64,000 bases of DNA, taken from the NCBI GenBank assembly GCA_963708075.1, contig OY970194.1, positions 5,184,001-5,248,000 on the forward strand. The letters are read 5' to 3'. The position numbers and the translations under genes are program-made. Source of the stretch: Sedimentisphaerales bacterium (GTDB taxonomy: Bacteria; Planctomycetota; Phycisphaerae; Sedimentisphaerales; Anaerobacaceae). Each line of letters opens with the position of its first letter. The stretch's first letter is position 1. Under the pieces are notes generated by a model, which had not been told where the DNA came from, searched no databases, and saw nothing but the letters and a program-made list of their open reading frames with translations. Positions 2,658 to 27,934 of the stretch are shown here, in pieces.

Positions 2658-2809
2658 GGCAATCTCCTTTAATCCAACCGTCAACTACTGGGCACAAGGA
2701 TAACCGCGACGCGATTTTCGTAAAGTCGGGCGGTGGCTGGTTCTTCCATCCGGCGGGATGCCCGTTTCCCTATCGGGGAATCCCCGTATGCGTGACTCAA
2801 GACAGGCCC

Positions 2810-3297
2810 CGACACGGATGAGCGCCGACGAACGCAGATAAGGAGCCGGGACACGGCAACGGCGACAGCCGGTAGAGTGTGCTCTGCCCGCCGATTCTCC
2901 TGCTAATCCACCGCAAAGGATGCAAAGGGCCGCAGAGAATCCATGGAGGGTGGGTTTTCAACCCACGCGTTGAAGGGTCCTCTTTTCCAACCGCGAAATC
3001 TCGCCCTCGACCCTCGATCGAGTCGAGGCCAGGCTCTGATCGACAGTCCAGGTCTTGAACCGACAACCGACTACTGGCTACCGACTACCGCTCATCATCC
3101 GCAGATTTCGCAGATGTCCGCAGATTCAATCATCAATCGAAAGGGCTTCCCGCCGGCGACCTTCCCAATCATCAAGCAAACATCATCAATCATCAATCCC
3201 GGCGTCCCGCCGCTGCCCTCTTCCCACTTCATACATCAAACATCAAGAATCAAACCTCACTCCGCTCCCTCCTCTGCGGAAAAGGACCGGACAGATT
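2810..3297. repeat. Mosaic array of short tandem-repeat and REP-like modules
   Basis: Concatenated modules (CCGACAA/CTACCGA, CGCAGAT, TCATCAA, CATCAAA units; hairpin GTGGGTTTTCAACCCAC). The same modules recur at 19274-19374, 26715-26988 and 28003-28086. Confidence 0.8.
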
Positions 3298-3305
3298 CAG
3301 TTCCT

Positions 3306-5909
3306 CTACTCCCTGCTAACCGCATCACGAATCTGCGCCTCGTAGTCGGATTTGCCTACGAGACGAAACAGGCAACGACCTTTACTCCGAGCCTCATATA
3401 TTTGGCCGATGATCGTCTTTTCCTCCGTGTCCGGGGTCTCCAGCCGATCTGCACCTTTGTACTCGACTACCAGAACACGCCCGTCTTTCAGGAGAACAAC
3501 GAAGTCGGGGTAAAATCGGTCTGTGGATGTGGGTAGCCAGAAGGAGTAATCACTACGCACCAGGTTGCGAACCCAGCAATCCACCTCTGGCAGGCCGTCT
3601 ATGAAGGCAGCGCATTTCGCTTCCTCTAAGTCCATATGGGCGGGACGCAGATAATAGTGCTTCCTGAATTCCATCCGACCGTCATAGTAGCGCGTTGCGG
3701 GATAATTTGCCGAATCATACGTGAAGCAGAACGTTGGGTCGGCCTCAAGGGGACTCTCAAAATCGGCTGATAGCATCCGCTGATAAGCCTGCGTCACAAG
3801 ATGCCGACGATGGTGCGAAATCTTAGCCTCGGCGGCATCGCGCAATCGCCACCGCTGGCTGTTTAGTTCACCGAAGGAAAACGCCCGGCGCTCGATCAAA
3901 AAGCGGACCATTTTGCTCAGGAACAGTCCGGTTTCGTACTGCGTTATGTCTGCGTGTGGAATATTCTGGTCTAACCAGTTCCTCAGGTCGCTCTCATTCT
4001 GGGGCCCATGAATCTCAAGCAAGGCAAGTTGCTTCTGAAGGTCCGACATGAACGAGTAACTGATTCTGCCTTCGCTGTCTACGTCGATGTTAGCAACCTT
4101 CTCCGTGTCTTGGGGCAGAGAGAAGTCTTGCTCGGATAGTGAGGCGTCGCACTCGCTCAGCTTCCATGGCACCTCGCGAAACTGATCCTCAAACAATTCG
4201 AGTTGCCCATCGACGCGCATAGCAAGTTGCGGGACACTCAATCGGTCCCCCATGGTCGATGGCGAAGCATCCTGACCCCATGATTTCTTCGACAGTCGCT
4301 CAATCGCCCTTTTGTCCTCCTTGCTCGTGACTGTTGCCTTGAGGGCCTCTGCATCTTCGGGGGCTATTGGTGGCCCCGTGTAGACGATCTCGACGCCACC
4401 CTCCTTTTTATTGAGAGTCAAACGCTCACGAAGGCGACCGGGGACGCTCGATAAGTTCACCGTCGTGGAAATCGTCTCCGAGACTGTCTCATTGAACAGT
4501 GGAAGATATTCATCGCCCTTCCGCTCACCCGCTTGAACCATTGTCTTGGCTTCAAACCGCTCGAACCCGCTCTCAACGAGGGCCTCTGTCAGCGCGTTGG
4601 CCGATTCAACGAAGTCAGAAGAAGTGGCATACGCATAGGCATGATTCAACTCCTCGTGCTGCCGGCGCGTCACATATGGCATTCGCAGGATTCGACCGAG
4701 GATTTGTTCAACGGCGGTGCTGCTGCTGAGATTGGACACTGTGCAGAGGATGTACGCAAACGGACAGTCCCAGCCCTCACGCAGCTTGTCCACAGTGATG
4801 ATATAGCGTATCTTCTGATCCTCCTTGAGCACATCCACGCCCTCAAGATCATTCTCAGTACCGGTTGATACGGCAATTTCCTCCGGGGGGACGTGGAACT
4901 CCTCGATGAGTGCCTTCTTGAGAACATCGTATGTGACGTTATTCGCACCGGCCACATTGCGCTGCGCCTGAAACAACACGATAGGCCGGATATACTGACC
5001 GGAACTCCTCTGTTCCTCGTTGGCAAACTCCTGCAGTTGGCTTTGCTTGTTCAGAGCTTCCTGCACAGCCTCGACCCACTGTGCTTTCGACTTGAGCAGG
5101 ATAGGCAGCTTGATCATGTGCTCCGCCTTCAGCTCGGCGGCTGAAACGTGGGTGAGCACGTTGCTTGGCTCGTTGCCGCTTTCAAGCGTCTGGCTCGGCG
5201 TCGCGGAAAACTCCAAAATACAGGACGGATTGAATCTCGCCAGAGATTCGAAGGACAGCGTTGTGCGTGCGTTATGAGCCTCATCCACGATGACAACCGG
5301 ACGCCGCAGCCTCAACAGGTTCGCCAAGCTGCGCACGATGCTATTGTCCCCATTGCGGATCAACTGCTCCTGCTCTTGCGTCAGCCCTTCAAAGTTGGAC
5401 ATCAACGCGCCATTATCTTCGTATATCTTGCGTCCCTCCGTGTTCTCCACGCGCATTGCAGCCATGGTCGAGATGATCACAACCGTATCTGAGTTGAGGG
5501 TTCCACGTTGGAGACTCAGGGCCGACTTGAGGTCCATGATGCTGACGCAACCGCCGAATGATTCATCTAGTGCCTTGCGGTATGCGTGGGCCTTATCCTG
5601 CAAGGCTTTGAAGGTCTGTTCGACAATTTGCGTGGTTGGCGCGAGCCAAAGCACTAAGGCCCTCTCGACCCGGAGCAAACTCGTTGCAGCGATGCTAATT
5701 GCATGCGCCGCGAGGACGGTCTTACCGCCGCCTGTCGGCACGCGAATGCATACGTAGGGAAGGCCTCTCAACGTCTCTACGTGATGATACGGCCTGCGAG
5801 TCTGCTCATAGAAAGCTGTGTCGCCATCCTGCAATTCCCACGTCCGGCGCAGATACTTCGCCAGTTCATCCAGACACCGCTGCTGATAGGTCTTCAGAAC
5901 GAATGCCAT
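3306..5909 (-). CDS. res: Type III restriction endonuclease Res subunit (DEAH helicase + PD-(D/E)xK nuclease)
   Basis: PTGGGKT, DEAH, SAT, EGWD, QILGRILR and C-terminal YPDF...EYKG; TAATG overlap with mod. Confidence 0.92.
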   Translation of the reverse strand: MAFVLKTYQQRCLDELAKYLRRTWELQDGDTAFYEQTRRPYHHVETLRGLPYVCIRVPTGGGKTVLAAHAISIAATSLLRVERALVLWLAPTTQIVEQTFKALQDKAHAYRKALDESFGGCVSIMDLKSALSLQRGTLNSDTVVIISTMAAMRVENTEGRKIYEDNGALMSNFEGLTQEQEQLIRNGDNSIVRSLANLLRLRRPVVIVDEAHNARTTLSFESLARFNPSCILEFSATPSQTLESGNEPSNVLTHVSAAELKAEHMIKLPILLKSKAQWVEAVQEALNKQSQLQEFANEEQRSSGQYIRPIVLFQAQRNVAGANNVTYDVLKKALIEEFHVPPEEIAVSTGTENDLEGVDVLKEDQKIRYIITVDKLREGWDCPFAYILCTVSNLSSSTAVEQILGRILRMPYVTRRQHEELNHAYAYATSSDFVESANALTEALVESGFERFEAKTMVQAGERKGDEYLPLFNETVSETISTTVNLSSVPGRLRERLTLNKKEGGVEIVYTGPPIAPEDAEALKATVTSKEDKRAIERLSKKSWGQDASPSTMGDRLSVPQLAMRVDGQLELFEDQFREVPWKLSECDASLSEQDFSLPQDTEKVANIDVDSEGRISYSFMSDLQKQLALLEIHGPQNESDLRNWLDQNIPHADITQYETGLFLSKMVRFLIERRAFSFGELNSQRWRLRDAAEAKISHHRRHLVTQAYQRMLSADFESPLEADPTFCFTYDSANYPATRYYDGRMEFRKHYYLRPAHMDLEEAKCAAFIDGLPEVDCWVRNLVRSDYSFWLPTSTDRFYPDFVVLLKDGRVLVVEYKGADRLETPDTEEKTIIGQIYEARSKGRCLFRLVGKSDYEAQIRDAVSRE

Positions 5910-7501
5910 TAGCACACCTTGATCTCATAAGGCAATTGCTTGAAGGTAATCCGCTCACGCTTCAGTCTTGCGTCCGAGAGCCGGCATCCTTCGCCGAAAA
6001 CGACTTTCGGCCCATCGTGTGCGGGCAGACTCCCCAACACCTTACTTGTCAACACATTGCCGCCATCCGGCGTCTTGTCACCGAGCACTCCGTTGAACAG
6101 GAGGTAGTAGGCCGTGCCGTTGGCGACACCCAGGAACGCGCTTCTTACACTCGCCTGCTTGGGAATGGGTGATCCCGTTTCAGTGAAGAAGACATGTGCC
6201 GCCAAATCCGTGAACTTGACCTCCGGACCAATCTGACCATGCTCATCGAAGAGGGGCTTGTCCAGCCTGCAATAGCGAAATCCGCCACCCAAGCCGGACA
6301 CGGATTTTCCCTTGGAGTTAGTGTAACCTTGTGCCACACGCTTGATTCGCTCGGCAGTAATTCCGCGCGCAATCTCCGGCTCCATCTCCACAAGGATGAA
6401 TCGACGGGTGCCGCCATTGGTATTCACCCTCAGAACCGCATGTCCCGTCGTTCCCGAGCCAACAAAGGAATCCAAAACTAAGTCCCCAGGCTTGGTGGCT
6501 TGCTCGATCAGCGTCGCGATTAGCTCAGAAGGTTTCGGAAAGGCAAATGCCTTTGGTCCCATGATCTCGCTAAGCTCCTTGGTTGCCTCAACGTTCCCCG
6601 GTGCATCGAGAACGGTTGACAGTCCGGTTGTGGTGGCTTGCATATCTGAGATGTAACGCTTTAGTCTGGGCCGACCACCTATCTTCTTGGGCCAGAGAAT
6701 CCGATTCTCGGCGATCAATGCTTGCATTCGCTCGCGACCGTAGATCCACCCACGGGAGGCGTGAGGCGGATAATGTTGCCCGGTTTCTGGGTGGATTATA
6801 TCGTAATGGAGATTTGGACGTTCGGCCGCATTTGCCAGACCTGTCAGATTGTCACTCATCCATGGGCCGCGTGGATCATTGTCTGGGTTCGAGTATTTCG
6901 TCAAATCCTTTGCTTGTCCTCTAACACGGAAGCCCGCGCTACGCTGATAGGCGAGTATGTACTCGTGATCCCCAGATACACCATTGAGATTCCGGCTATC
7001 GGGCGTGGTCCGACGTTTCCAGATGAAAGTGGCTATATGATTGGTTTCTCCAAAAATCTCATTCATCAGGAGCTTCAGACGCTCGAATTCGTTGTCATCG
7101 ATGCTCACAAAGATTGCCCCATCTGGTCGGAGGAAATCTCGCAAGAGCGACACTCTCGGATACATCATGCAGAGCCACTTATCGTGGCGTGACAGATCCT
7201 CGGCCTCTCCTCCGACGGTCTTTCCAAGCCACTTTCGTATTTCGGGGCTGTTGACATTGTCATTGTATGCCCATTTCTCGTTCCCGGTGTTGTAGGGCGG
7301 GTCGATGTAGATGCATTTGACCTGTCCAGCGTAGTAAGGGAGGAGGGCTTTCAAGGCCAAGAGGTTATCCCCCTCGACCAGCAGATTTCCGGCGTCGGGG
7401 TCGCCGCACGAAAGATCCTTATCGCAGCGCAACAAGTGGTAAGGCACTTGGCGGTGGTGTCCGACGACCGCTTCCTTCCCAATCCAATTCAGTGAGGGCA
7501 C
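5909..7501 (-). CDS. mod: Type III R-M N6-adenine methyltransferase Mod subunit
   Basis: EGDNL, IDPPYNTG, FPKP, DSFVGSGTTG in beta-class order; directly upstream of res. Confidence 0.93.
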   Translation of the reverse strand: MPSLNWIGKEAVVGHHRQVPYHLLRCDKDLSCGDPDAGNLLVEGDNLLALKALLPYYAGQVKCIYIDPPYNTGNEKWAYNDNVNSPEIRKWLGKTVGGEAEDLSRHDKWLCMMYPRVSLLRDFLRPDGAIFVSIDDNEFERLKLLMNEIFGETNHIATFIWKRRTTPDSRNLNGVSGDHEYILAYQRSAGFRVRGQAKDLTKYSNPDNDPRGPWMSDNLTGLANAAERPNLHYDIIHPETGQHYPPHASRGWIYGRERMQALIAENRILWPKKIGGRPRLKRYISDMQATTTGLSTVLDAPGNVEATKELSEIMGPKAFAFPKPSELIATLIEQATKPGDLVLDSFVGSGTTGHAVLRVNTNGGTRRFILVEMEPEIARGITAERIKRVAQGYTNSKGKSVSGLGGGFRYCRLDKPLFDEHGQIGPEVKFTDLAAHVFFTETGSPIPKQASVRSAFLGVANGTAYYLLFNGVLGDKTPDGGNVLTSKVLGSLPAHDGPKVVFGEGCRLSDARLKRERITFKQLPYEIKVC

Positions 7502-7685
7502 GAAACGCTTCTCCTTCTACTTCCCAACACGTATCCACAAGGCCTTTCCCATGATATCCCGCTGGCCGGCCAGTTCAAGGTATTCTCCGTGGAAGGAAGA
7601 AGGGTCTTCGAGAAAGGGGAAGATGTCGCGTACTTTTTCCAGACGAGTCGGCATAAGTGTCACTCTGGCAAAGGGTTAGGGGAGG

Positions 7686-7886
7686 AGTGTGAAGCATCAA
7701 GTGTGAAGTTTGATGTTTGAAGTTTGAAGTGTGAAGCCGGAGGCTGGGTTTTCTCTGCGGCTTGGCGTCTCTGCGTGAGGTAATGTTGGTTCCGGCTGAC
7801 AGCCGGGCTGGGTTGATCGGCGGTGGCATTTCCTCCGTGGTCTCTGTGGTGAAGAAATCTGGCTTCCCAATCAAGTCGGGAATGAC
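7686..7886. repeat. Mosaic repeat array on the opposite flank of the R-M cassette
   Basis: GTGTGAA/GTTTGAT/GTTTGAA heptamers (inverse of the CATCAAA run at 3230-3260), CTCTGCG/CTCCGTG units, TTCCC...GGGAATGAC hairpin. Confidence 0.75.
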
Positions 7887-7948
7887 AGGCGCGGGCCGTG
7901 GCTCTCAGGTTCTTGCCTTCCGGAGTCGGCGCTGGTATGATTTACGGT

Positions 7949-8125
7949 ATGAAGTCACTGATCCAGAGCAATCGGTACTTAGCCGATCCGGCGAATCGCA
8001 AGGCGATGGTCCGGGACAATGCCCGACAGTCCTCCGTCTTTGAGGGCGCCCACGGCCTCTCCGCTCAGCCCTTGCGCACGCGCCGTTCCAGGGCCTCTAC
8101 AAAGAAAGCCGTCAAGGGCTCGTAG
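7949..8125 (+). CDS. Small basic hypothetical protein (58 aa), probably leaderless
   Basis: TTGCCT-17-TATGAT promoter 7 nt before the ATG; overlaps the 3' end of a Fic-like remnant on the opposite strand. Confidence 0.5.
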   Translation: MKSLIQSNRYLADPANRKAMVRDNARQSSVFEGAHGLSAQPLRTRRSRASTKKAVKGS

Positions 8126-8210
8126 TCCTGGACGTACCCCTTCCTGACAGCTTCCAGATACGCCGCCTGCCTTTTCTTGGCATTTCGCCCGATGAAGCCG
8201 TAATCGGGTG
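8065..8210 (-). pseudogene. C-terminal remnant of a Fic-like protein
   Basis: PDYGFIGRNAKKRQAAYLEAVRKGYVQDYEPLTAFFVEAL resembles a Fic C-terminal helix; the 5' part is replaced by heptamer repeats (8210-8258). Confidence 0.5.
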
Positions 8211-8264
8211 CGGATTGGGGGTGGTTGTCAGTTCTCGGTTGGCGGTTGTCAGTCAGTGGAGGCC

Positions 8265-8618
8265 TCAGGTTCGGACTCGGATCCGATCTCGTTCGACAAT
8301 CCACAACTGGCCGGCACAATCGTTTGTCTTGAGCACTTCCAGCAGCCGTTGCACGAGCCGGGCGACCTCCGGAACACTCTGCCTCGCCAGGCGCAGGACG
8401 AGCAGGCCGGGGTAGTCGGCGGGGCGATAGGTTCGGATGTCTGAGAAGTCAGTGTCGAGCGTGATAAGGGTCCGGCCTTCCTGCTTGCAGACGGATGCGA
8501 TTCGGCGATCCGGCCGCCCACTCAGCGATTGATCGAAAACCGTGAGCGCATCATGGCCGGCGGCACGCAAGAGGTCCACGGCTTCTAAGGGGAAGTTCTC
8601 ATCCGCTTTGAACTTCAT
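8265..8618 (-). CDS. DUF5615 PIN-like toxin (VapC45-like)
   Basis: MKFKADENFP...GHDA...EGRTLITLDTDF. Confidence 0.88.
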   Translation of the reverse strand: MKFKADENFPLEAVDLLRAAGHDALTVFDQSLSGRPDRRIASVCKQEGRTLITLDTDFSDIRTYRPADYPGLLVLRLARQSVPEVARLVQRLLEVLKTNDCAGQLWIVERDRIRVRT

Positions 8619-8628
8619 GGTCGGGTCC

Positions 8629-8967
<339 letters not shown>

Positions 8968-9834
8968 TTAGAAGGACCACTTCAGGGTCAGGCTGGCCCA
9001 GAGCTCTTGGTCGTCCTCGTTGATCGAGTTGTTCAGCGTGAGCTGGTAGAAGACTCCGGGTGTGAAGACGATGCCGGAGCCGAAATCGAAGTCGGTGGCG
9101 AGGCCGAAGACGGCGTGGGACCAGTCGTGGTCGGGATCGCGGTACAGGGCCCGCCAGTCGTTGCCCGGCCGGGTCGGGGTCGGCGAGAACCCGTCGTTGT
9201 AGGTGACCTCGGAGTGCAGCTTGACGAGCTGGTCCTTCGATCGGCCGGGGACCAGGGCGGGGATCGAGAAGCCGTAGTCGAGCATCAGGATGTGCAGCCA
9301 GCCGTTGCCGTCCGCGAGGCGGGAGTTGCTCTCCGCCTGCCACATTTTGACCGAGGCGATCGTGGGGCACAGGCCTTTCACGGGCAGAAGGCTGGGCCAG
9401 GAGAGCATCAGGTGGGCTTCCTGGAGGTCGAGCGATTCGCTCTCATCGAGCTCCGGGTAGGCGTAGTAGACCCAGCCGGCCCGGAATTGGGTGACGTACG
9501 GCTGGTCCTTGAAGAGGCTGTTCTGATAGTACGGGGCGAAGTCCCAGCGTTCCTTGTCCTCGAACCCGCCCGACGCGGCGCGATGGCCGGTGACGGAGAC
9601 GCCGAAGCCTGTATCGAACAGGCTCAGGTCGGTCTGCAGGTGCAGGGCAGCCTTGTCCTCGTAGAAGTCGAAGCCGTACCAGAGGTACTTGCTGTCCCAC
9701 GCCAGGCTGATGGATCCGTGGAGATCGCCCGTGACTGCCGGCCGATCCCCTTTCTGCAGATCCCCTTTCCAGTTCTGCGCCGTGACCGGCGCCGCTACGC
9801 CAAGGATGGCTGCCAGGACCACTACCTGTCTCAT
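8968..9834 (-). CDS. Outer-membrane beta-barrel protein (TorF-like putative porin)
   Basis: Signal peptide [28 protein letters not shown] motif, amphipathic strands, terminal LKWSF. Confidence 0.65.
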
Positions 9835-9915
9835 AACCGACCCCTTCCAGCACACAATCAATGCCGCTGCGAACGGTCTGTGCGCAGCGTCGTGTCCTGG
9901 TGGAATATCGGCAGT

Positions 9916-11311
9916 TTACCAGCGGCCGCTTTTCCTCATTTCGGCCTTGGGCAGTTTTTCCAGGTCCTTGGTGTACTTTTTCAGCTCCTCTTCGGGCAAT
10001 TCGTAGTCGGTGAGCCGGCCGGACATGAAGGCGTCGTAGCCGCTCAGGTCCATCAGGCCGTGCCCGCTGTAGTTGAAGAGAATCACTTTCTCTTTGCCTT
10101 CCTTGCGGGCCTTTTCCGCCTCGTCGATTGCGCAAGCGATGGCGTGGCTGGTCTCCGGGGCACAGATGCTGCCTTCGGTCTTGGCCCAGGTCATCGCCGC
10201 CTCGTAGCAGCGGCTCTGGACATAAGCCCGCGGCTTGAATAGACCTTCGACGATACACTGACAAACCAGCGGAGCCATACCGTGATAGCGTAAGCCCCCT
10301 GCGTGGATTGGCGGCGGGACGAATGCGTGGCCCAGCGTGTGCATCGCCAGCAGCGGGGTCATGCAGGCGGTGTCGCCGTGATCGTAGTGCGAACGGGGCG
10401 CGGGTCATCTTCGGGCAGGCCGCCGGCTCGACGGGAATGATCTCGATGTTGGCGCCGTTGATCTTGTCGGCCGTGAACGGGAAGGCGAGTCCGGCGAAGT
10501 TGCTTCCGCCGCCGGCACAACCGATGACGATGTCCGGCAGTTTCTCCCCGGCCGCCTTCAACTGCTTCTTGGCCTCCAGGCCGATGATCGTCTGATGCAG
10601 CAGCACGTGGTTGAGCACGCTGCCCAGGGAGTAGCGGGTCTTGCCGGACGGGTCGGTGACGGCCGCCTCGATGGCCTCGCTGATCGCGATGCCCAGGCTG
10701 CCCGGCGTATCCGGGCATCTCGGCTCGAGGATCTTGCGGCCCGCGTTGGTCTCCGTGCTCGGACTGGCGACGCAATTGCGCGCCCCAGACCTGCATCATC
10801 AGCTTGCGGAAGGGCTTCTGGTCGAAGCTGATCCGCACCATGAACACCTTGCACTCCAGCCCGAACAGCTTGCAGGCGAACGCCAGGGCGCTGCCCCACT
10901 GGCCGGCCCCGGTCTCCGTGGTCAGCCGCTTGATGCCCGAACTGCTTATTGTAGTACGCCTGGGCCACGGCCGTGTTCGGCTTGTGGCTGCCCGGCGGGC
11001 TGACGCTCTCATCCTTGTAATAGATGCGCGCCGGCGTCTTCAGGTACTTCTCCAGCCGCACGGCCCGCCGCAGCGGCGTCGGACGCCACTGGTACAGGAT
11101 GTCCAGCACCTCCTCCGGGATGTCGAATCCACCGCTGCGTGCTGACCTCCTGCTCGATGATGTTCATCGGGAACACCGGCGCCAGCATGTCCGGCGTGAT
11201 CGGCTTGCCGTCCGGACCCAGCGGCGGCAGCGGCGGCGTCGGCAGATCGGCCGCCATATTGTACCACTCTCTCGGCATGTCCCCCTCACGAAGCAGGATC
11301 TTGTGCTCCAT
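9916..11311 (-). CDS. trpB2: TrpB-like (TrpB2) PLP enzyme, broken by about 5 frameshifts (probably sequencing errors)
   Basis: Pieces in different frames: [61 protein letters not shown]. Confidence 0.9.
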
Positions 11312-11642
11312 TGTCTGTTCTCCAACCAAAGTCTTTCTTCAGCGCGAATTTTGTCCACCAGAGCCACACAGGCGAAAGACAATATGTTACTCCATTCACA
11401 ACCCCCTGTCAAACCAAAATCCCCCAATTCCCCAGGCCAATCCCAAGTCCCCGGCAGGGCCGCCCCGAAAGCCAAAATTGCCCAAGCAGCCCTGCCTTTG
11501 AATTGAAGATCGCCATAGCGCAGGTCAAGTTGGCTTCCCGGGTGGTCGATAGCAGCAGGGGATCGAGCCATAGGAGGGTAACTGATGTAAGGCACGGACT
11601 GCCAGAGCAAGAAAGCGAGCTATTACACAGGGATACGAGACC

Positions 11643-14600
11643 GTGCCGCGCATCTTCGACAACATCAAGAATAGTCTCTTGCCAGCACTCCAAGAGACGC
11701 TGGCCTTATCGGACCGCGCGGACTTCTGCGTGGGCTACTTCAACCTGCGGGGATGGAAGGCATTGGATTCGCATATCGAGCGATGGTCGGGTGCCGAAGG
11801 CCATTGTTGTCGGTTGCTCGTTGGCATGCAGACGACCCCGAATGACGAACTTCGCGAACTGTTTGGTCTCATAAAGGGCGATGACGGCATAGATCAGGCA
11901 ACAGCGTTACGCGAGAAGAAGAACCTTGTCGAGAAGTTCAAAGAACAATTGACAGTCGGGGCACCCACGAACGAGGATGAGGTAGGACTCCGGCGTCTCG
12001 CGAGCCAGATCAGAGCAAAGAAGGTCGTTGTCAAGCTATTCCTGCGTCACCCGCTCCACGCGAAACTCTATCTGCTGTTTCGGCCCGACCCAATCAACCC
12101 CACCATCGGCTACTTGGGAAGCAGTAACCTCACATTGGCCGGGCTCTGCCATCAGGGGGAGTTGAACATCGACGTACTCGATCACGACGCCTGCAACAAG
12201 CTGGCAAGATGGTTCGAGGAACGATGGAACGACCGTTGGTGCATCGACATTTCGACAGACCTTGTAGAGGTCATTGAGCGTAGCTGGGCGAGAGACGAAC
12301 TCATTCCGCCCTATCACATCTACGTGAAGATGGCTTATCACCTGTGCCGTGAAGCGAGGGAGGGCATATCAGATTTCCACCTGCCGCAGGAGTTGAAGAA
12401 CAAACTGTTCGCCTTTCAGGAAGCGGCGGTGAAGATCGCAGCGCATCACATCAATAAGCGAGGCGCGGTATTGATTGGGGATGTCGTTGGCCTTGGCAAG
12501 ACGCTCATGGCTACCGCTTTGGCGCGCATATTCGAGGATGACTACGACCTCGAAACGCTCATCATCTGTCCCAAGAACCTCCTGCCCATGTGGAACGACT
12601 ATCGGGAGCGCTATCATCTGCGGGGGAAGGTAGTCTCCTTGAGCCGTGTCATCCGGGAGTTGCCGGAAATGCGGCGATACCGCCTCTTGATCATCGACGA
12701 GAGTCATAATCTTCGCAACCGGGACGGAAGGCGTTACGGTGCCATCCGTGACTACATCAAGAAGAACGACTGTAAATGCATTCTGCTTTCGGCCACCCCA
12801 TACAACAAGACATATCTCGATTTGGCTAACCAGTTGCGTTTATTCCTGCCAGATGATCACGAGCTATCCATACGCCCGGAACGCCTCCTCAACGACATGG
12901 GTGAGACGGACTTCATTCGATGCCACCAGTGCTCCCCGCGGTCCCTGGGTGCATTTGAGAAGAGCGGATACGCGGATGACTGGCGTGAGCTCATGCGCTT
13001 ATTTCTGGTCCGACGGACGCGGAGTTTCATCATGGAGAACTACGCCAAGACCGATCCGTCCAACGGGCGCAAATATCTACCGCTTGAGGATGGACAGCCC
13101 TACTACTTCCCCGCGCGTGTCCCAAGGACAGCCGCATTCACTATCGATGAAAGGTGCAAGAACGATCAGTATGCAGAGCTTTACTCGCAGGACGTTGTGA
13201 ACAGAATCAACGACCTCTATCTGGCACGCTATGGGTTGGGGAACTACGTCTTGCCCTCCCATGAGATACCACCGACCCAGGATGAGGCCAGGGTTCTACA
13301 GAACCTCTCCCGCGCAGGGAAGCGTCTGATGGGTTTCTGTCGCACAAACCTCTTCAAGCGTTTGGAATCCAGTGGGCAGGCGTTCATCCAGTCGATTGAA
13401 CGCCACATCTTGCGTAACTTTGTCTACCTGCATGCCATACAAGCGCGGAAGCCTTTGCCCATTGGAACACAAGACGCTGACTTGCTCGATGCCCGCCTCT
13501 GGGACGAGGACACCGCCGGTGGGTTGCTTGAAGACGATGAGCAACGTGACCAGGGCACGGAGGATACCTCCGCCTTAAGAACGCAAGATGACTTCAGACG
13601 CCGCGCGGCCGAAATATACGAACAGTATGCGACGCGTGGCAAGAGGCGCTTTGACTGGCTTCGGCCCAACCTCTTTGACAAGGTCCTCGCTGACGATCTC
13701 CGGACTGACGCAGAATCGCTCATGAAGGTGCTTGAGAAGTGCGGCGAATGGGATGCCAGCTTGGACGCCAAACTGAACGCGCTATGCGCCTTGCTGCTTG
13801 AGAACCATCCTACGGACAAGGTCATCGTCTTTTCGCAATTTGCCGACACCGTACGTTGCCTCGAGAAGGAGCTCAGCGCGCGCGGGATAACCAACCTTGG
13901 CACAGCCACAGGCGACTCCACCGATCCGACCGACATCGCCTGGAGGTTCAGTCCGGACAGCAATGAGAAGCGTGACCGAATTGCGCCGGAAGATGAGCTT
14001 CGCGTCCTCATTGCGACTGATGTCCTAAGTGAAGGTCAGAACCTTCAAGACTGCGCTATCGTCGTAAACTACGACCTCCCTTGGGCTATCATCCGCCTGG
14101 TTCAGCGCATCGGGCGGGTTGACCGCATCGGCCAGCGTGCCGAGAAGATACTCTGCTATTCTTTCCTGCCGGCAGATGGTGTCGAACGCATCATTCACCT
14201 TCGTGCTCGCGTGCGCCAGCGGTTGCACGAAAACGCGGAAGTCGTTGGCACAGATGAGGCATTCTTTGAGGACGACCGTAACAACCAGACGTTATTCGAC
14301 CTCTACAACGAGAAATCGTCCGTCTTGGATGGGGACGCAGATAGCGAAGTCGATCTCGCATCATATGCCTACCAGATTTGGAGCAATGCCATCACGGCCG
14401 ATCCTAAGCTGGAGAAGATCATTCTCGAAATCCCGTCAGTCGTCTACTCCACAAAGTCGCACCAGCCTACCGCCACCACGCCGGAAGGTGTGCTTGTCTA
14501 CCTGCGCACGCCAGAGGACAACGACGCTCTGGTCTGGGTGGACAAGAATAGGCACGTGGTCACGGAATCTCAGAAGACCATCCTGGACTCCGCGAAATGC

Positions 14601-15020
14601 TCACCGGCTACGGCCGCTCTCCCACGACTCGAAAATCACCATGACCTTGTGCATCACGCCGTGGAGCAGGTTCTGAAAGAGGAGAAATCCGTCGGTGGTC
14701 AGCTTGGGCGACCTTCGGGTGCGCGCTTCCGTGCCTATGATCGCCTTAAGCAGTTCGCGGACGAAGTCAAGACTACGCTCTTTAACCGACAGGAACTGCA
14801 CCGCGCCATCGAAGAAATCTACCGCTACCCGCTTCAAGAGGCTGCCAAGGACGCCATCAACCGGTTGCTTCGGTCACACGCATCAAGCGAGGACCTAGCC
14901 CAAAAGGTTCTGTCTCTGCGTGACGCCGATGCCCTTTGCATCAAGGACGATGAAGTCCAATCGCACGAGCCGCGCATCATCTGTTCGATGGGATTGTCCA
15001 ACTTGCAGAGGGGGAAATAA
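11643..15020 (+). CDS. PLD (HxK) nuclease fused to SNF2-like helicase
   Basis: LHAKLY...GSSNLT; DVVGLGKT, DESH, SATP, SEGQNLQ, QRIGRVDR. Confidence 0.9.
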   Translation: MPRIFDNIKNSLLPALQETLALSDRADFCVGYFNLRGWKALDSHIERWSGAEGHCCRLLVGMQTTPNDELRELFGLIKGDDGIDQATALREKKNLVEKFKEQLTVGAPTNEDEVGLRRLASQIRAKKVVVKLFLRHPLHAKLYLLFRPDPINPTIGYLGSSNLTLAGLCHQGELNIDVLDHDACNKLARWFEERWNDRWCIDISTDLVEVIERSWARDELIPPYHIYVKMAYHLCREAREGISDFHLPQELKNKLFAFQEAAVKIAAHHINKRGAVLIGDVVGLGKTLMATALARIFEDDYDLETLIICPKNLLPMWNDYRERYHLRGKVVSLSRVIRELPEMRRYRLLIIDESHNLRNRDGRRYGAIRDYIKKNDCKCILLSATPYNKTYLDLANQLRLFLPDDHELSIRPERLLNDMGETDFIRCHQCSPRSLGAFEKSGYADDWRELMRLFLVRRTRSFIMENYAKTDPSNGRKYLPLEDGQPYYFPARVPRTAAFTIDERCKNDQYAELYSQDVVNRINDLYLARYGLGNYVLPSHEIPPTQDEARVLQNLSRAGKRLMGFCRTNLFKRLESSGQAFIQSIERHILRNFVYLHAIQARKPLPIGTQDADLLDARLWDEDTAGGLLEDDEQRDQGTEDTSALRTQDDFRRRAAEIYEQYATRGKRRFDWLRPNLFDKVLADDLRTDAESLMKVLEKCGEWDASLDAKLNALCALLLENHPTDKVIVFSQFADTVRCLEKELSARGITNLGTATGDSTDPTDIAWRFSPDSNEKRDRIAPEDELRVLIATDVLSEGQNLQDCAIVVNYDLPWAIIRLVQRIGRVDRIGQRAEKILCYSFLPADGVERIIHLRARVRQRLHENAEVVGTDEAFFEDDRNNQTLFDLYNEKSSVLDGDADSEVDLASYAYQIWSNAITADPKLEKIILEIPSVVYSTKSHQPTATTPEGVLVYLRTPEDNDALVWVDKNRHVVTESQKTILDSAKCSPATAALPRLENHHDLVHHAVEQVLKEEKSVGGQLGRPSGARFRAYDRLKQFADEVKTTLFNRQELHRAIEEIYRYPLQEAAKDAINRLLRSHASSEDLAQKVLSLRDADALCIKDDEVQSHEPRIICSMGLSNLQRGK

Positions 15021-15023
15021 CCG

Positions 15024-18000
15024 ATGCTACTCGATGTCGCAAAGATCAGAAAACGCCTTTCTGCCTTTGAATTTAAGCAACTCTTTGTCGAAGAGCTTGG
15101 CTGGGACCGGTACACAACTGATCTCACAGTGCCAGTCGACGGCCACACCCTCACACTCTCATCAGTCGCCGAGAAACGAGGGATGCCTGTCTTCGTCTGT
15201 GAGCCGGATAGCAACGGCGGGATTCCAGACGGGTCTACCCGTCGGAAGATCGAACGCCGGGTCACCAAGAGTGTCCACGAGCACCTAATCGTGTTCGTCG
15301 ACGGCAGGCACACCACACAGATTTGGCATTGGGTCCGTCGCGAGCGTGGCAAGCGCCTGGCGGCTCGTGAACATTGTTACCATACCGGGCAGTCAGGTGA
15401 GTCGCTCATCCAAAAGCTGGGAAACCTGGCCGTCAGTCTCAAAGAGGAAGAGCACGTCACATTGCCTGACGTGATGATCAAAGCAAAGGTGTTCGATGTC
15501 GAGCGTGCCACCAAGGCATTCTACGATCGATTCAAGGAGGAGCGTAAGAGATTCCTTGGATTCCTCACCGGTATCCCCGATAAAGAGATGCAGGCATGGT
15601 ACGTATGCATCATGCTCAACCGCCTTATGTTCATCTACTTTCTGCAGAAGAAGAGATTCCTTGATGACGACCCGCACTATCTCAGGAACAAGTTCGCCAA
15701 GTTTAGGGAGGGCCATCAGCGGGATCGCTTTTATCGGGATTTTCTCTGCCCCCTTTTCTTCGAGGGTTTTGCCAGATGGGAGGACGAACGATCACCGAGA
15801 GCACGCGACGTTCTTGGCAGAGTACCCTATCTGAACGGCGGCATCTTCCAGAAGCATCGAATAGAAAGGCTCCACGGACACACCATCAACATCCCAGACA
15901 AGCCATTCGAGAGCCTCTTTGAATTCTTTGATGCATTCCACTGGCATCTGGATGACCGTCATACAGCCAACGATAACGAGATCTGTCCTGATATCCTCGG
16001 GTACGTATTCGAGAAGTACATCAACCAAAAGGAGATGGGCGCCTATTATACGAAAGAGGATATCACAGAGTACATTTGCAGGAACACGATAATTCCATTT
16101 CTTCTTGGCGCTACTGAAAGAAATGCGGGAGGACGCATTTGAAGGTGAAATGTCTGTTTGTGCACTCCTTCAGGATGCCCCCGACCGATATATCGACAGC
16201 TCGATCAAGCATGGAACTAGCAACACATTGCCGCCAGTTATTGCGAATGGGCTTGATCCAGATAAGCCGAATGTCATTGAGCGGCGTAGGAACTGGAACG
16301 AGCGAGCGCCTAGTGAATACGCATTGGACGGCGAAACCTGGCGAGATGTTGTCGCGCGCCGACATCGCTACGCAGAAATGCGAGACAGACTCATTGCAGG
16401 CGAAATCCAATCAATTGATGACCTTGTCGCCTGCAATCTTGATATCTATCGATTTGCGATTGATGTCATTAAGACCTGCAAGAGCCCAGATCTCCTCTCG
16501 GCGCTCTGGGAGGCAATCGAGCAGATTTCCGTATTAGACCCGACATGTGGATCAGGTGCCTTCTTGTTCGCTGCACTCAAGGTCCTCGCGGGTTTGCAGG
16601 AAGCATCCCTCGATCGGATGGCTCGCTATCTTGATGAATGGCGTTTGGGTCGAAAGAAGAACTCGAGCGACTACTCCGATGTGTTTAGCCAGATACTGAA
16701 TCGAATGGGTGACCCGTCTAAACGAGACTTATCGATAGTTAAGTCAATCCTGACCCGTAACCTCTATGGCGTGGACATCTTGGATGAAGGCGTGGAGATC
16801 TGCCGGTTGAGACTATTCCTTGCGCTTGCCTCGCTATTGGAATTAGATCAGTCCAAACCAAATCTGGGCATAAAGCCATTGCCGGACTTGGACTTCAACA
16901 TCCGCACAGGGAACACGCTTGTTGGTTTCGCATCTCTCGATCAAGTAAGGAACAGCTTTGCGGGAAAGCTCCCCTTTCCAGAGGTGAGAAAGCATGTCGC
17001 ATTGATCGAGAAGCAAGCGGATGCCGCCGACCATACGCTCTCCAAGTTTCAGAAAATGCAGATGGACCAGCAAGTATCCAATCACGAAGCAATCATTGAG
17101 GCCAAAGACAGCTTGAAAACCTGTCTCAACGACCTCAGCAACGAATTGGACGAGTTCCTGGCTGGTGACTACGGCGTCAATATTGCCGACAGAAGCTGCT
17201 TTGAGAAGTGGCGAGGCTCCCACAAGCCCTTCCACTGGTTAAGTGAGTTCCACGGCATTATGAGGAAGGGCGGGTTTGATGTCGTCATAGGGAACCCCCC
17301 GTTTGTTGGGTACAGCGACGCGTCGAGCAGCTACAGAGTCCAAGGGTATAGCACACTTGATAGCCGTAATCTCTACGCCTATGTTGTGGAGCGAAGCATG
17401 GCTTTGCTCCAGCGAAACGGTGGAATCGGCATGACGGTGCCGGTTTCCCTCACGTTCAGCCGAGATTTCCCATCCCTTCGAAGACTCCTCCTTGAGCGTA
17501 AGGGTCTGCTCATGCTCTCCTCATATGACAACATCCCTGACCGCCTGTTTACCGGTGCAAAGGAGAGCGAGAACACCAGCAAGGCAAATCAGCAGCGAAT
17601 AACAATCTTCCTATCGATCCCGGCGCAGAGGGCGCACTTACGATGACCACACCGCTCCTGCGCTGGCGTTCAAGTGAGCGAGAGAGGCTCTTTGCAAAGC
17701 TGCCATATGTGGATGCAACTGCACTCTGTGGCACCGAATCGTTCCCCAAGCTCGGCTCGCGCAAATTGCGTGACTTCCTAATATTGTGGAAGGCTCTCCC
17801 CAAGAGACTTGTCCAGTACATGGACAAGCACGGCAAGCACCACTTGGTTGTGCCGCGAACAGCAGGTTATTACATCGCAGCGTACCCCGATGAAATGGCG
17901 CGAACGAAGCAGATGGTACTGCGATTCCCGTGTAGAGAGCATCGTGATCTGGCGTTTGTCTTGCTCAACAGTAACGTCTTCTTCTGGCTCTGGCGTGTCA

Positions 18001-18344
18001 TAGGTGACGGTTTTGACGTGACAACCAACCAGATTGAGCAGTGCCCGACCTTCGGGGCCCTGGATGAGGAATGTACTAAGATTGCGGCTGACTTGGAGGC
18101 TGCGCTTCCGGAATGCACAGTGTACAAAGGCTATCGCGGTGTCCAGGTTCCGAACGTCAATTTCAACAAACGCATGGACCTCCTGTGGCGCGCTGACGAG
18201 TGGATTATCAAGCACGTCGCGCCAAGTCTAAGCGTCACCCCGGAGGATTTCTTGTGGGCAAAGTCGAGTTCATTCCTGAAGCTATCTGTAGCTAAATCTG
18301 CTAATCTCCCACCTGGCTTTGACTTTGTGGCGGGGGAGAATTGA
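15024..18344 (+). CDS. Eco57I/type IIG-like N6-adenine DNA methyltransferase; probably one gene, frameshifted near 16120 and 17625
   Basis: YLNGGIF, LGYVFE, GAYYT in 15024-16142; LDPTCGSGAFL and GNPPF in 16105-17646; TRD-like tail in 17643-18344. Confidence 0.85.
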
Positions 18345-18360
18345 ACGAGGGAACTGCCAG

Positions 18361-18694
18361 TATCCGGTCCTCTTTCGGGGTGGATGGCCGGAAATGGGAG
18401 GGGGACGGAAGATCTGATTGCGGATTTGGGAGTGCGGAATGCCGAGGACGGAAGGGAGACGCGATAGGTGATCTGTGATAAGAAAGAGGGCGGCGGGACA
18501 ATGAGAATGCGGAATTGGGAATGCGGAGTGCGGAATGCCGGCCTTTGGCCGGTTGTCAGTTGAGAATCTTCGGCTGTATTTCTCTGTGTCCTCGGTGGCC
18601 TCTGTGGCCCAGTGAATTTACGATTTACGAATTACGATTTGCGATTGGGAAAGGAAGTTTGAAGTGTGAAGTAAGCGAGCGGCAGGGCCGGGTC
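18361..18694. repeat. Mosaic repeat array (GCGGAAT, TACGATT, GTTTGAA heptamers) with inverted junction motif
   Basis: Visible heptamer runs; TGAAGTAAGCGAGCGGCAGGGCCGGGTC is identical to 24678-24705. Confidence 0.75.
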
Positions 18695-18696
18695 GC

Positions 18697-18851
18697 TCCA
18701 ACTTCTCCGCGCACTGCTGACAGTGGAACGCCACGATATCGGTCAATCCCTCCTCGGCCAACTCCATGGCGTGCTCGGCCGCCCTGAAGTCGTGTTCCGC
18801 TTTCTCCGTCCAGCGGGCGACCTGCTGCATCAATTCAGGCGGCTCGCTCAT
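18697..18851 (-). pseudogene. HEPN toxin, 3'-truncated
   Basis: WTEKAEHDFRAA...AFHCQQCAEK, then runs into a repeat module; ATGA overlap region with the MNT gene. Confidence 0.8.
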
Positions 18852-19170
18852 ACAACACCTTTCCCTCCCTCACTGCCTCGCGGATGATTGTGCCTATGGT
18901 GTCGCGATACTTCTCCACCTCCTCCGGCGTGACTACGATAAGATCAATCGGAATCGGAATGCCTTCCAAGGCCAAGTCGATCTCCACGGCCTGTTGCCGT
19001 TTGGACCCGTCCACCGGCATAACGACCAGCAAATCGGCGTCGCTATCCGGCCCGCCCCGGCCCCGTGCCAGCGAGCCGAACAGGATGATCCGGTCCGGGT
19101 GAAACCGCGACACAATGCGGTCCACCGCCTCTTGAAGAGCCGACTCACTTGTCTCCGGTCGAATGGCCAT
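18835..19170 (-). CDS. Minimal nucleotidyltransferase (MNT) antitoxin
   Basis: IILFGSLARG...DSDADLLV...IDLIV...EGKVLYE. Confidence 0.9.
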   Translation of the reverse strand: MAIRPETSESALQEAVDRIVSRFHPDRIILFGSLARGRGGPDSDADLLVVMPVDGSKRQQAVEIDLALEGIPIPIDLIVVTPEEVEKYRDTIGTIIREAVREGKVLYERAA

Positions 19171-19273
19171 AGTACGCTCCTGACTGCAACAGACGATCCG
19201 ATGCTATTCTACGCCCTCCGCCCCTCCCAGGCAAGCGCCTCCGCGCCTCTCATTCCGCAATCCGCATTCGAAA

Positions 19274-19374
19274 CGTCCCGCCGCCCCCCCTTTTTCAAAT
19301 CAAACATCAAAAATCAAACATCAAACTTCACACTCCCTCCGCTCCCTCCTCTCCGAAAAACGACCGGACAGATT
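19274..19374. repeat. Junction module shared with 3203-3297
   Basis: CGTCCCGCCGC, CATCAAA heptamers, then CTCCGCTCCCTCCTCT.CG.AAA..GACCGGACAGATT. Confidence 0.85.
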
Positions 19375-19641
19375 AAGTTGCGCCGGGCCACCGTTCTCCT
19401 GGTGACCTCGGAACTGACTGGCCAATAACGCTGACCCTCAAGCAACGGCAGACGGCGGCTGTTCGAGATCGCCGAGTCCCTTCCGTCGTGAGATTGCGCG
19501 CTGTGTTGCAGACCGCCATGTATTATTTTGAAGATGGCGATGGGTCAAGTGTATAATCACACGCCGAAGACGTCACGAGAGCAGGCTTGTCACTAGCCGT
19601 TAGAAGGCGTAAATCGTTACTCCCAGAGGCGAGGTTACAGA

Positions 19642-21213
19642 ATGGCTACCATGAAGTGTGATCTGCAAGCGATGAATTGGCTGGCTCGCGTATTGGACCC
19701 AACGGCTTCATTTGCAAGGCTGGGAGACCCCAATCAGGAGGTTGACATTTTGCGAGGACTTGTAGAAAGATCCAGCGAGATGTCTCGACTGCGGCCTCTT
19801 GCCACAATCGCAGGAATTGGCGGAACGTCTGAATACATGGCCGGGCCCAAACCCACAGCTTCTACTGCAAACAAGATATCGTCTGCATCGGATTTCATGA
19901 CAGCGGTGCGAGATCGCTTGGCACAAAGATCATGGACTGCCCTCATAGTCCCTTCATACGATGAAGAGGCACTTGACTCCTTTCTCTGTTCGGAGGGTTT
20001 CAAAGCATCGCTTGTACGCCAGAGTGGGAACAAAAACGGGCTCATTCTCCAACCGCACTGTAAATCGGAAAGAGCTTTCGATCTGACTGACGTGTTCCCT
20101 AGTTTTCTAGCGGCACTTGGTGAAGCCACTAAGTGGCCTGGCTTGCTGGTGTGGACTCAGAGCAGTGAATCGGTCTTTCTGGCGCTACCTCAGGCAGGCG
20201 AAGAGATGATTCAAGCTTGCGCAACGTGGATAATAGCGCGGCTTGTGGCCATGTCTCCCGTCAACTTGAAGTCCCTCAAGGAGGATTATCTGAAGCAGTT
20301 TCCGGCGATTAAAAGACGCTACTCGCGCGTGTTACACCTGTTACAGATAAGCGATGTCCATCTTGGCTCAAGGATAGCTCGCCAACGACTACCGCGAGTA
20401 CAAGCTCTGATCGAAAAAGAAGTCGAACAGTTGAGACAGTCGGGTAGCGTGCGACCTATCATCACAGGTGATCTTCTAAACAGCCCAAACGATAGTAATG
20501 TGGATGATGCGGAGAGCTTTCTGTATTTCCTCCATAGTCTGAAACTAGACGACCCTGCGATCGTTCTGGGTAACCATGATGTTAGGAAAAGCGGTATCAT
20601 AGGTGAGGACTTCAAAGCAGCATTGAATCTACCCACCAGTCCAGTCGTCTGGATACCGGATTACATGGTAGGGCTGGTGTGTTTCAATTCAGTCATAAGG
20701 GGTAGGTTGGCTCGTGGATTCATAGGCGAAAAGCAGTTCATGAGACTGGGTACCTGCATTGAGAACCAGAAGGACTCAAGCGAGTATGCTCTCATAGGTC
20801 TTCTTCATCATCATCCAATGCCCGTGCGCAACCCTGGTTGGTTGAAGATCCCCTTTTATGCAAGATGGCTTGGGCGTTTCTTCGAGCGCACCGTCGAATT
20901 GAAGGATGCACGTCAGTTTCGCCAATTTGTGACAGAAAGATCGATGAGAGCTGTCTTGCACGGACACAAGCATGTTCCACGTGAGGGGTTGCTGTCAAAG
21001 GAGAGCGCTATCCCTGTGTTTGGTTGTGGGAGCTCCGTCGGAAAAATCAAGACCAGGGATGGTGGCCCGTACATCTCGATTAATGTGGTCACCATCGATC
21101 CCGCAGCCAACAAGCTGGTCGGTAGGCTTCTAATCGAGAAGTTCGCTGGTGCCGGGTTTGAAGAAGAACGCCACGAACGCATACTGCGCATGGATTTGGT
21201 CCGCCACAATTAA
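19642..21213 (+). CDS. Calcineurin-like metallophosphoesterase with unknown N-terminal domain
   Basis: SDVH, TGDL, GNHD, LHHHP and HGHKH motifs in the C-terminal half; lower GC than the flanking core genes. Confidence 0.85.
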   Translation: MATMKCDLQAMNWLARVLDPTASFARLGDPNQEVDILRGLVERSSEMSRLRPLATIAGIGGTSEYMAGPKPTASTANKISSASDFMTAVRDRLAQRSWTALIVPSYDEEALDSFLCSEGFKASLVRQSGNKNGLILQPHCKSERAFDLTDVFPSFLAALGEATKWPGLLVWTQSSESVFLALPQAGEEMIQACATWIIARLVAMSPVNLKSLKEDYLKQFPAIKRRYSRVLHLLQISDVHLGSRIARQRLPRVQALIEKEVEQLRQSGSVRPIITGDLLNSPNDSNVDDAESFLYFLHSLKLDDPAIVLGNHDVRKSGIIGEDFKAALNLPTSPVVWIPDYMVGLVCFNSVIRGRLARGFIGEKQFMRLGTCIENQKDSSEYALIGLLHHHPMPVRNPGWLKIPFYARWLGRFFERTVELKDARQFRQFVTERSMRAVLHGHKHVPREGLLSKESAIPVFGCGSSVGKIKTRDGGPYISINVVTIDPAANKLVGRLLIEKFAGAGFEEERHERILRMDLVRHN

Positions 21214-21301
21214 TTTCAACCATTCTCATGCCTCGCCAGAGAAGCCCCCTATTCTGTAACCGATTCGCACAGAAGTCATGGTCAAGAAGGTTTGGACTGG
21301 C

Positions 21302-22999: not shown

Positions 23000-23068
23000 G
23001 ATTCCTCTCCCCCCCCGGCCAATCTGAAGGTATTTTTTTCAGGATACAGGAAGCCGGTTCGCCGGTGG

Positions 23069-23254
23069 TCACCCCTTTAGGTACTCACCGATAACCCATT
23101 TAGTCCTATCCGACCTTCGGTGCCAATCGACGAGCTTGGAGAGGATCTGAAGCTGGGAAGCTGCGGCGTCGGTCGCTGCAATCTTCGACATTTTCAGATG
23201 AGCACGCGCCGCCTGACTAAGGCGGCTGACAGTTTTTCTCTGCTTCTTAGCCAT
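23069..23254 (-). CDS. Small basic hypothetical protein (61 aa)
   Basis: RBS GGAGAG before the ATG; co-oriented with and upstream of the peptidase-like gene. Confidence 0.5.
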   Translation of the reverse strand: MAKKQRKTVSRLSQAARAHLKMSKIAATDAAASQLQILSKLVDWHRRSDRTKWVIGEYLKG

Positions 23255-24072: not shown

Positions 24073-24420
24073 TCAGTCGGTGGTCGCTTCGGCGGGCTCT
24101 TGTTTGCGGATGTCGTCAAACTGGTTGATCTCGACGTCGCCCTGTGGAAAGTGCGCGATGATGCGCAGTTCCCCGCCCATGGCGGCGATGAATCGTCGAA
24201 GCGTGCTGACGTACATGTCGGACTGATGCTCCAGCTTGGAGATGGCGGCCTGGTTCATCTTCAGCACTTCAGCCAGCTCCTGTTGCGTCAGGTGCATCGC
24301 CTGGCGCAACTCCTGGAGGGCCATTTCCGAGTACATCTCGGCGGTGCGTTTGCGAATTCGCTCCCGGCTCTGGGGCGACATCTTATCAACAAGATTCTTA
24401 AACGGCTTTGCCATCAGCAT
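24073..24420 (-). CDS. XRE-family HTH protein (HigA-like antitoxin), no adjacent toxin
   Basis: LQELRQAMHLTQQELA...QAAISKLEHQSDMYVSTLRRFIAAMGGEL. Confidence 0.9.
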   Translation of the reverse strand: MLMAKPFKNLVDKMSPQSRERIRKRTAEMYSEMALQELRQAMHLTQQELAEVLKMNQAAISKLEHQSDMYVSTLRRFIAAMGGELRIIAHFPQGDVEINQFDDIRKQEPAEATTD

Positions 24421-27873: not shown

Positions 27874-27934
27874 GATCTCTCCCTTTCCATTGGTCCGCAA
27901 CGTCACTCGTCGGGCGCCCTTCGGCCCAACGTGA

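Follow-up and report, generated by a model that had tools for sequence, protein, structure and literature searches.

TIRtrons, also referred to as TIRYTs, are elements in which the gene of a Y1 HUH transposase is framed, in most though not all cases, by terminal inverted repeats (TIRs) of the GGGGWSAS type, as set out in the portions of the original description that define them (Di Nocera, De Gregorio and Rocco 2013, PMC3733652). In the sections of a later survey that deal with this class, TIRtrons mostly belong to TnpA-Y1 subclass 2.1, which carries a C-terminal extension with a helix-turn-helix (HTH)-like domain, HUH Y1 enzymes nick and rejoin single-stranded DNA via a tyrosine link, and RAYT-like transposases (repetitive extragenic palindrome (REP)-associated tyrosine transposases) are kept like housekeeping genes with a function that is still unknown (Quentin et al. 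2018, PMC6006769). Here, we analysed a 64,000-nucleotide stretch of the genome of a Sedimentisphaerales bacterium (assembly GCA_963708075.1, contig OY970194.1, positions 5,184,001 to 5,248,000), hereafter the window, whose own coordinates are used throughout unless another locus is named. Judged by their sequence, four short sites in it, A (3278–3304, plus strand), B (19355–19381, plus strand), C (18350–18376, minus strand) and D (7613–7639, minus strand), are worn, transposase-less copies of a TIRtron TIR. Such ends are oriented with their outer tips towards foreign DNA enriched in defence genes, and inward-facing pairs of them bracket two restriction-modification (RM) operons in this genome. 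The reading that we favour, and hold to be probable, is that the outer tips of A to D mark joints between host and foreign DNA made by the nick-and-join activity of a transposase, which likely connects incoming genes to the chromosome at the TIR tip.

The family to which these ends belong resembles the TIRtrons, within the parts of the two papers that describe them, in its framed Y1 gene, its dispersed repeat copies away from the gene and its class 2 Y---NP motif. It departs from those accounts in its repeat, which mostly reads GGTGTCMG, and in its 225-aa protein, which appears to lack the C-terminal HTH extension (no Pfam HTH match at E<=1e-9) and carries the motif HWH, whose W is not among the residues given for u in HuH in the corresponding section of PMC6006769. 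The window itself also differs from the TIRtrons so described in having only worn lone ends; pairs that face inwards across cargo, and a leaning of the ends towards foreign or defence DNA, form no part of those accounts. In RAYT/REP-REPIN systems, according to the relevant passages of Bertels et al. 2017 (PMC5581495), a single-copy Y1 transposase spreads short ends in trans with unknown benefit to the host; unlike the repeats in that account, those found here have no GTAG-tagged hairpin and number in the tens rather than the hundreds, and the NCBIfam NF047646 scores of 63 and 58 bits fall below the 80-bit cut-off. IS91-family HUH elements, in the portions of PMC13181058 that treat them, move adjacent DNA by one-ended events with single-strand intermediates. 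A HUH enzyme, single-strand intermediates and an end that can join adjacent DNA to new partners would be common to both cases, making IS91 a model for the possible action considered here, whereas IS91 as characterized there has unlike ends (oriIS and terIS) without inverted repeats and mobilizes DNA beyond terIS. The present case further differs from both IS91 and ISCR elements in that one inverted repeat makes up either end and the window sites lack the gene. ISCR elements reportedly capture genes in a manner related to IS91 one-ended transposition. Integrons and CALIN arrays carry short sites near the stop codons of variable, often defensive genes. The window likewise has short sites close to cargo stop codons; unlike integrons and CALIN arrays, it has no nearby integrase, site orientation is mixed, the cargo probably carries a promoter of its own and the breakpoint varies. 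A first-pass annotation of the window had rightly seen no integrase in view, the four tyrosine recombinases of the genome all lying >470 kb away, and no attC-like palindrome was noted at the sites, for which the attC covariance model was not run. The kind of element has been known since 2013 and this TIR subfamily may be listed in the 2013 paper, while its polarity towards cargo appears to be unpublished: in the open-access literature, only the 2013 and 2018 papers were found on TIRtrons or TIRYTs, and TIR ends linked to cargo or defence genes were not found. The window contributes the cognate enzyme, a controlled measure of polarity, the bracketing of two RM operons within a single genome and a pair of alleles, one filled and one empty.

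The first-pass annotation had drawn attention to a junction sequence at 3203–3297 and 19274–19374, with a reversed variant close to a stop codon, and these observations hold. The two copies, which contain sites A and B, align at 78% over 106 bp (E ~1e-18), the variant at C lies on the minus strand (GTCCCGCCGC at 18490–18499, core at 18361–18377), and the junctions are separated by 8 bp from the res stop codon (3306–3308) and by 16 bp from that of the ORF (open reading frame) at 17643–18344. The similarity was described as ending abruptly, at GATT; in fact the A/B alignment extends to 3302/19379, and A, B and C all continue to match the family TIR for ~11 bp beyond GACA. A, B and C have in common a gapless 17-mer, CGRAARASGACCGGAYA; a search of the 7.5-Mb genome at 0 or 1 mismatch gave three copies, none of them outside these 16 kb. 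GACCGGAYA, which had been proposed as the functional unit, is the middle of the transposase end repeat and by itself occurs at chance level (110 observed against ~121 expected), GTCCCGCCGC is hardly enriched (97 against 84), and the heptamer component is a genome-wide repeat with 601 arrays. Exact searches yielded little. The 17-mer core had two matches in 275 family genomes compared with three in the control, both in coding-looking DNA, and the two A/B-type patterns gave 0 and 0 across all GTDB genomes. A single metagenome match to an A/B-type pattern, without heptamers and between two ordinary-looking genes, was taken as chance. The GATT variant is therefore private to this lineage among the genomes searched.

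Looser matching revealed the identity of the repeat. With one mismatch allowed, the core fell, by eye, in intergenic or heptamer-rich DNA at 7 of the 27 genus loci displayed, and a looser pattern led to a locus (L062) with inverted copies of the motif on either side of a Pfam Y1_Tnp gene that encodes 225 aa; the left-hand copy agrees exactly with the TIRtron consensus GGGGWSAS. A search for a 15-bp core gave ~180 matches, distributed over 73 of the 276 family genomes, and 11 matches for a reversed control, and Y1 (PF01797) transposase genes framed by the inverted repeat pair were found in the genomes of nine relatives, one of them frameshifted, with HWH in all nine proteins and YIE[AT]NP in frame in eight. 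Conservation continues ~12 bases past the 15-bp core, and the repeat is therefore ~27 bp long. A weight matrix trained on 51 sites of relatives, none from this genome, ranked A 9th, D 10th, B 12th and C 19th genome-wide, with 0 matches in the reversed genome at the score of A, 0 at that of B and 3 at that of C; D, the fourth site, overlooked by the first-pass annotation, was found in this way. Since the seed pattern descends from the window motif, the 14 columns beyond the seed were scored alone, giving p=0.002 for A, 0.003 for D, 0.012 for B and 0.05 for C, and a combined p=1e-4 for A, B and C in these columns, which were never in the search pattern. Identity to the 27-base family TIR amounts to 21/27 for A, 20/27 for B, 19/27 for C and 18/27 for D. 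A further TIR-like match at 30902–30934 (minus strand) is weak, its score of 12.8 lying inside the control range.

In TIRtrons the tips point away from the gene; at the window sites they point towards cargo, with the inner sides towards heptamer mosaics. A and D face inwards and enclose a type III RM operon (3306–7501, minus strand; mod 5909–7501, res 3306–5915). Read from inside to outside, A has its tip 1 bp from the res stop codon, and its inner flank (3203–3277, plus strand), consisting of a CGTCCCGCCGC linker, a heptamer run and a C/T-rich stretch, is common to B. D points at the mod start 111 bp away, with a heptamer run on its inner side at about 7686–7744. C and B lie within an insertion of 16.7 kb (11400–28190) between trpB2 and memo, genes that adjoin each other in 13 of 20 relatives. 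C, the weakest of the four, has its tip 5 bp from the stop codon of a type IIG RM gene, and B, the sister copy of A, faces the lowest-GC block: GC is 0.546 for the type III RM operon, 0.541 for the helicase-IIG block and 0.518 for the phosphoesterase block, against 0.604 for the genome. A type II RM system 55 kb away is enclosed in the same manner by near-canonical inward-facing TIRs (L195:4542-6900; G000:C1:5129541-5131900). At that locus, a third end is directly followed by the end of another TIRtron subfamily. Elsewhere in the genome, two copies of another TIRtron (G000:C1:478768 and 6909572) have an identical protein and different flanks, one of which, judged by eye, resembles the end of an RHS-toxin core. 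An alternative pairing of A and C as the ends of one 15-kb element was rejected, as the core gene trpB2 would be inside.

To assess how general the polarity is, 60 loci were fetched around listed sites, of which 49 from the genus were used. These contained 65 sites. Setting aside the 12 with an internal transposase and the 18 at which one side was shorter than 800 bp (five being in both groups) left 40 lone sites in 13 genomes. The window is excluded from these polarity figures and from the PADLOC figures below. Outer GC was lower than inner GC at 34 of the 40 lone sites and, by majority, in 12 of the 13 genomes, and the same held for 17 of 20 sites elsewhere in the genome that contains the window. 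At 13 of those 20, outer GC was <=0.56, compared with 9% of the sides of TIR-free heptamer mosaics. Outer DNA was also less conserved: its cover in this genome was <20% at 33 of the 40 sites, whereas cover of the inner DNA was that low at 21 of the 40. In a PADLOC scan of the two nearest ORFs per side at the 49 genus loci and 16 loci of this genome, matches at E<=1e-25 were obtained for 17 of 105 outer and 5 of 107 inner proteins and for 2 of 67 control proteins beside 19 TIR-free heptamer mosaics (Fisher p ~0.007 for each comparison, overstated because kin and operon genes are not independent). At E<=1e-50, the numbers were 13, 2 and 0. ORFs were taken from a crude caller, by which some genes of the window were overlooked. 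Three proteins that qualified for both sets were assigned to the outer one, in which sites next to intact transposases are also represented. The outer matches, some of them partial, include Gabija (twice), Hachiman, DRT8, type II and IIG RM and DarG, and 58 of the 75 outer proteins scanned had no Pfam match at E<=1e-9. Of the first-pass proposal of a recurrent site for defence cargo, the part that stands is a recurrent boundary of definite orientation, here and in relatives, with host or repeat DNA on one side and, on the other, foreign DNA in which defence genes are enriched; an excised circle or an alternative joint was not seen in one low-depth run.

The geometry at the tips bears on how such boundaries could form. 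The joint sits at a variable distance beyond the repeat, which contradicts the fixed crossover point that had been suggested, and where the first outer gene is convergent its stop codon lies <=30 bp from the matrix window in 17 of 38 cases. Stuttering is common at TIR tips, where part of the repeat recurs in short tandem copies (L074, L065, L079, L097, L102 and G000:C1:5283300-5285000), with partial copies outside at 18 of 82 sites and inside at 8 of 82; one stutter yields TGACCCC units that resemble one of the heptamer families in this genome, and some heptamer arrays may therefore arise at TIR tips. At L189:5854-6486, the stretch between a pair of inward-facing TIRs, of which one is an end of an intact TIRtron, contains a promoter and the first part of a gene that has been cut in mid-frame. 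In the proposed mechanism, the transposase would nick single-stranded DNA at the TIR tip and join the tip to another strand, presumably reaching lone ends in trans, in the way that RAYTs act on REPs. One end would be joined per event, either to incoming DNA, resulting in capture, or to a point farther away in a resident island, resulting in an adjacent deletion. Joints that spare an operon would be retained by selection, and selection for whole operons would account for stop codons 1–5 bp from the tip. Two such joints would generate the order TIR, cargo, TIR, in which the repeats face inwards, opposite to their arrangement in a TIRtron, and A and B may go back to a single recent copying event that took in an end and ~75 bp of its inner flank. 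Given the variable join, the tip stutters and the gene cut in mid-frame, joining of this kind fits better than a fixed crossover.

Comparisons among relatives provide further indication of changes at the tips. Six genome pairs have common inner DNA and a same-facing TIR with outer DNA that is not common. In relative G018, 1.5 kb of cargo is flanked by two TIRs that face each other, all within a 2-kb insertion, at a place where the genome studied here has a 200-bp gap, and one of the two G018 ends retains the transposase promoter and first codons. DNA homologues of the type III RM operon occur in 3 of the 275 family genomes; the G013 homologue has a TIR core 7 bp from its res stop codon, at another locus, and in G011 two TIRs lie ahead of the homologous mod start. 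Three different G012 loci (L156, L157 and L160) share a TIR variant and, beyond it, a stretch of 111 bp that runs up to the contig end, this shared stretch being a repeated element attached at the TIR tip.

Several results weigh against the reading of the tips as transposase-made joints. In two of the six same-site pairs, the outer DNA available amounts to only 111 bp. A convincing TIR is absent at two of four type III homologues (G182 and G197), the homologues of the helicase-IIG block have a TIR core at the head in 0 of 4 cases, with none found at their poorly defined tails, and in two of these four the operon continues into further genes. Of 21 homologous positions in this genome, only 2 carry a TIR, both at the same place. 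With TIRs at few homologous positions and homologous cargo present without them, the ends are sporadic and are not required by the cargo. Upstream of extracytoplasmic function (ECF) sigma paralogues, DNA differs at all 13 loci examined without any TIR, and the ECF sigma gene was accordingly set aside as uninformative for anchoring an empty site at A, being one of a paralogue family with differing upstream DNA. The match of A to D to the family TIR is worn (only 18–21 of 27 bases), and the canonical GGGGWSAS was exact in only 1 of 18 intact ends, 14 reading GGTGTCAG or GGTGTCCG and three being unmatched by the pattern; A to D are further from GGGGWSAS than are the intact ends. No intact transposase of the cognate subfamily was found in this genome (assembly 93% complete), for which reason A to D are probably old or dormant; the best full-length Y1 matches are 31–42% identical and have other ends, and what was found of the cognate element is a 140-bp remnant (60% identity) with an internal deletion. 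No partner end was found for B or C. A weak GC polarity is also seen at heptamer mosaics that lack TIRs (128 of 200, with a mean difference of 0.01), the first outer genes face either way (38 against 37), and 88 of the 105 outer proteins, some of them ordinary enzymes, had no PADLOC match at E<=1e-25, to which the overstated p-values given above must be added. Finally, no joint at A to D, excised circle or skip joint was seen in X1, a thin run.

An alternative explanation is that the TIRs are passive passengers, that is, selfish miniature repeats whose insertions fall near stop codons in A+T-rich DNA under weak selection, while island joints arise otherwise, for example by recombination of heptamer or REP mosaics, and are only marked by the TIR. 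Sporadic occurrence (2/21) and homologous cargo without TIRs would be expected of passengers, the ends travel with small common inner flanks, heptamer arrays lie <=300 bp inward at 9 of 24 sites and could be the true recombination handle, and dispersed TIR families are described in the sections of Di Nocera et al. 2013 (PMC3733652) that deal with them. However, insertion into foreign DNA would leave such DNA on both sides, whereas it is the outer DNA that is low in GC and not conserved; heptamer-only sites show no defence enrichment (2 of 67), and whole RM operons are enclosed by inward-facing pairs twice in this genome. We regard the passenger explanation as unlikely.

Two further explanations were considered. 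In the first, two full TIRtrons once flanked and moved the cargo as a composite transposon, and their genes and far ends were later lost, so that the two ends closest to the cargo were left. In its favour are the G018 arrangement of TIR, cargo and TIR, missing from the empty site and with the transposase promoter and first codons at one end, and the deleted remnant of the element in this genome. This origin is improbable, considering that a true TIRtron interior was found in the inner 120 bp of only 1 of 75 lone ends, that of G018 (three further matches being tandem TIR copies), and in none of A to D. Highly improbable, in our estimate, is an integron-like system in which GACCGGAYA is a fixed crossover for reversible cassette insertion and excision by an unseen recombinase, even though stop codons lie near the site as with attC cassettes, pairs with the same site and different cargo exist and relatives carry tandem same-facing copies. 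The 9-mer is at chance level and the site is a transposase TIR, joint positions vary, with that of L189 cutting a gene in mid-frame, the orientation is mixed (38 against 37), and neither a circle nor a skip joint was seen in the low-depth run X1.

If, as we favour, lone ends are joints left by arriving DNA, the question of what RAYT-like transposases do for their hosts becomes testable through the L062 family, the 27-bp site, its predicted polarity and the G018 filled/empty pair, and the ends would also offer a route to island borders and to candidate new defence genes. If the ends were mere passengers, the repeat would be an ordinary one that is still a useful marker. More speculatively, TIRYT transposases could be gene-capture enzymes kept by their hosts, with lone chromosomal TIRs as attachment points and the chromosome itself as the 'element', an idea that we put forward as possible though doubtful. 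Equally tentative is the capture scheme that goes with it, in which incoming single-stranded DNA would be joined at the tip and defence operons would end up between inward-facing ends. Were this true, the system would be a counterpart of integrons that works without an integrase, and the role of RAYT-like transposases in their hosts would be explained.

Beyond the repeats, the cargo blocks comprise several further features. Between D and mod, a promoter-like -35/-10 pair (7551–7578, minus strand), kept in the G011 and G013 homologues, is a candidate promoter; GACCGGACA as a -35 box was rejected, since by eye it has no -10 box at proper spacing. The first part of the 16.7-kb insertion encodes a PLD-SNF2 helicase and a type IIG RM in three ORFs (11643–18344, plus strand), and what had been labelled a methyltransferase beside C is the final piece of this type IIG gene. 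The DNA inside C and B (18377–19354) consists of heptamer mosaics and contains a minimal nucleotidyltransferase (18835–19170, minus strand) and a short HEPN-like ORF (18618–18851), labelled by eye and without a family match. The notion of C and B as DDE transposon ends with a target duplication was dismissed, as no duplication was seen by eye, and L192, considered as an analogue of C and B, was rejected as a perfectly palindromic contig and likely artefact. Outside B, a metallophosphoesterase gene (19642–21213, plus strand) is convergent with that of a 565-aa protein of an unnamed Atlas cluster (21302–22999, minus strand), for which the former peptidase label has a weak Atlas lead as its sole support. 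The metallophosphoesterase matches the model of the anti-phage DS-9 phosphoesterase weakly (46 bits against a cut-off of 420), and the pair (19642–22999), for which no DNA homologue was found among the 275 family genomes, is a candidate defence module.

Among the reads, only run X1, possibly the source sample, contains the stretch, at a depth of ~1–6. One X1 contig spans A unchanged (2712–3393), and the joints listed from this run fall in repeats with ~30-base sides and are evidence neither way. Genes split by frameshifts in the window are trpB2 (9916–11329), the type IIG RM gene (15024–18344), a block at 24810–26383 and memo (28195–29625). X1 contigs have one-base indels at 16116–16164, 17629, 25153, 25608 and 29219, and most of these splits, that of trpB2 excepted, are therefore likely to be long-read assembly errors, including those of the type IIG gene, two of whose breaks (16116–16164 and 17629) carry indels in one X1 contig. 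A near-identical dispersed repeat of 150–280 bp was also observed at 735–1074, 31036–31443 and 33556–34030, with at least 11 further copies in the genome.

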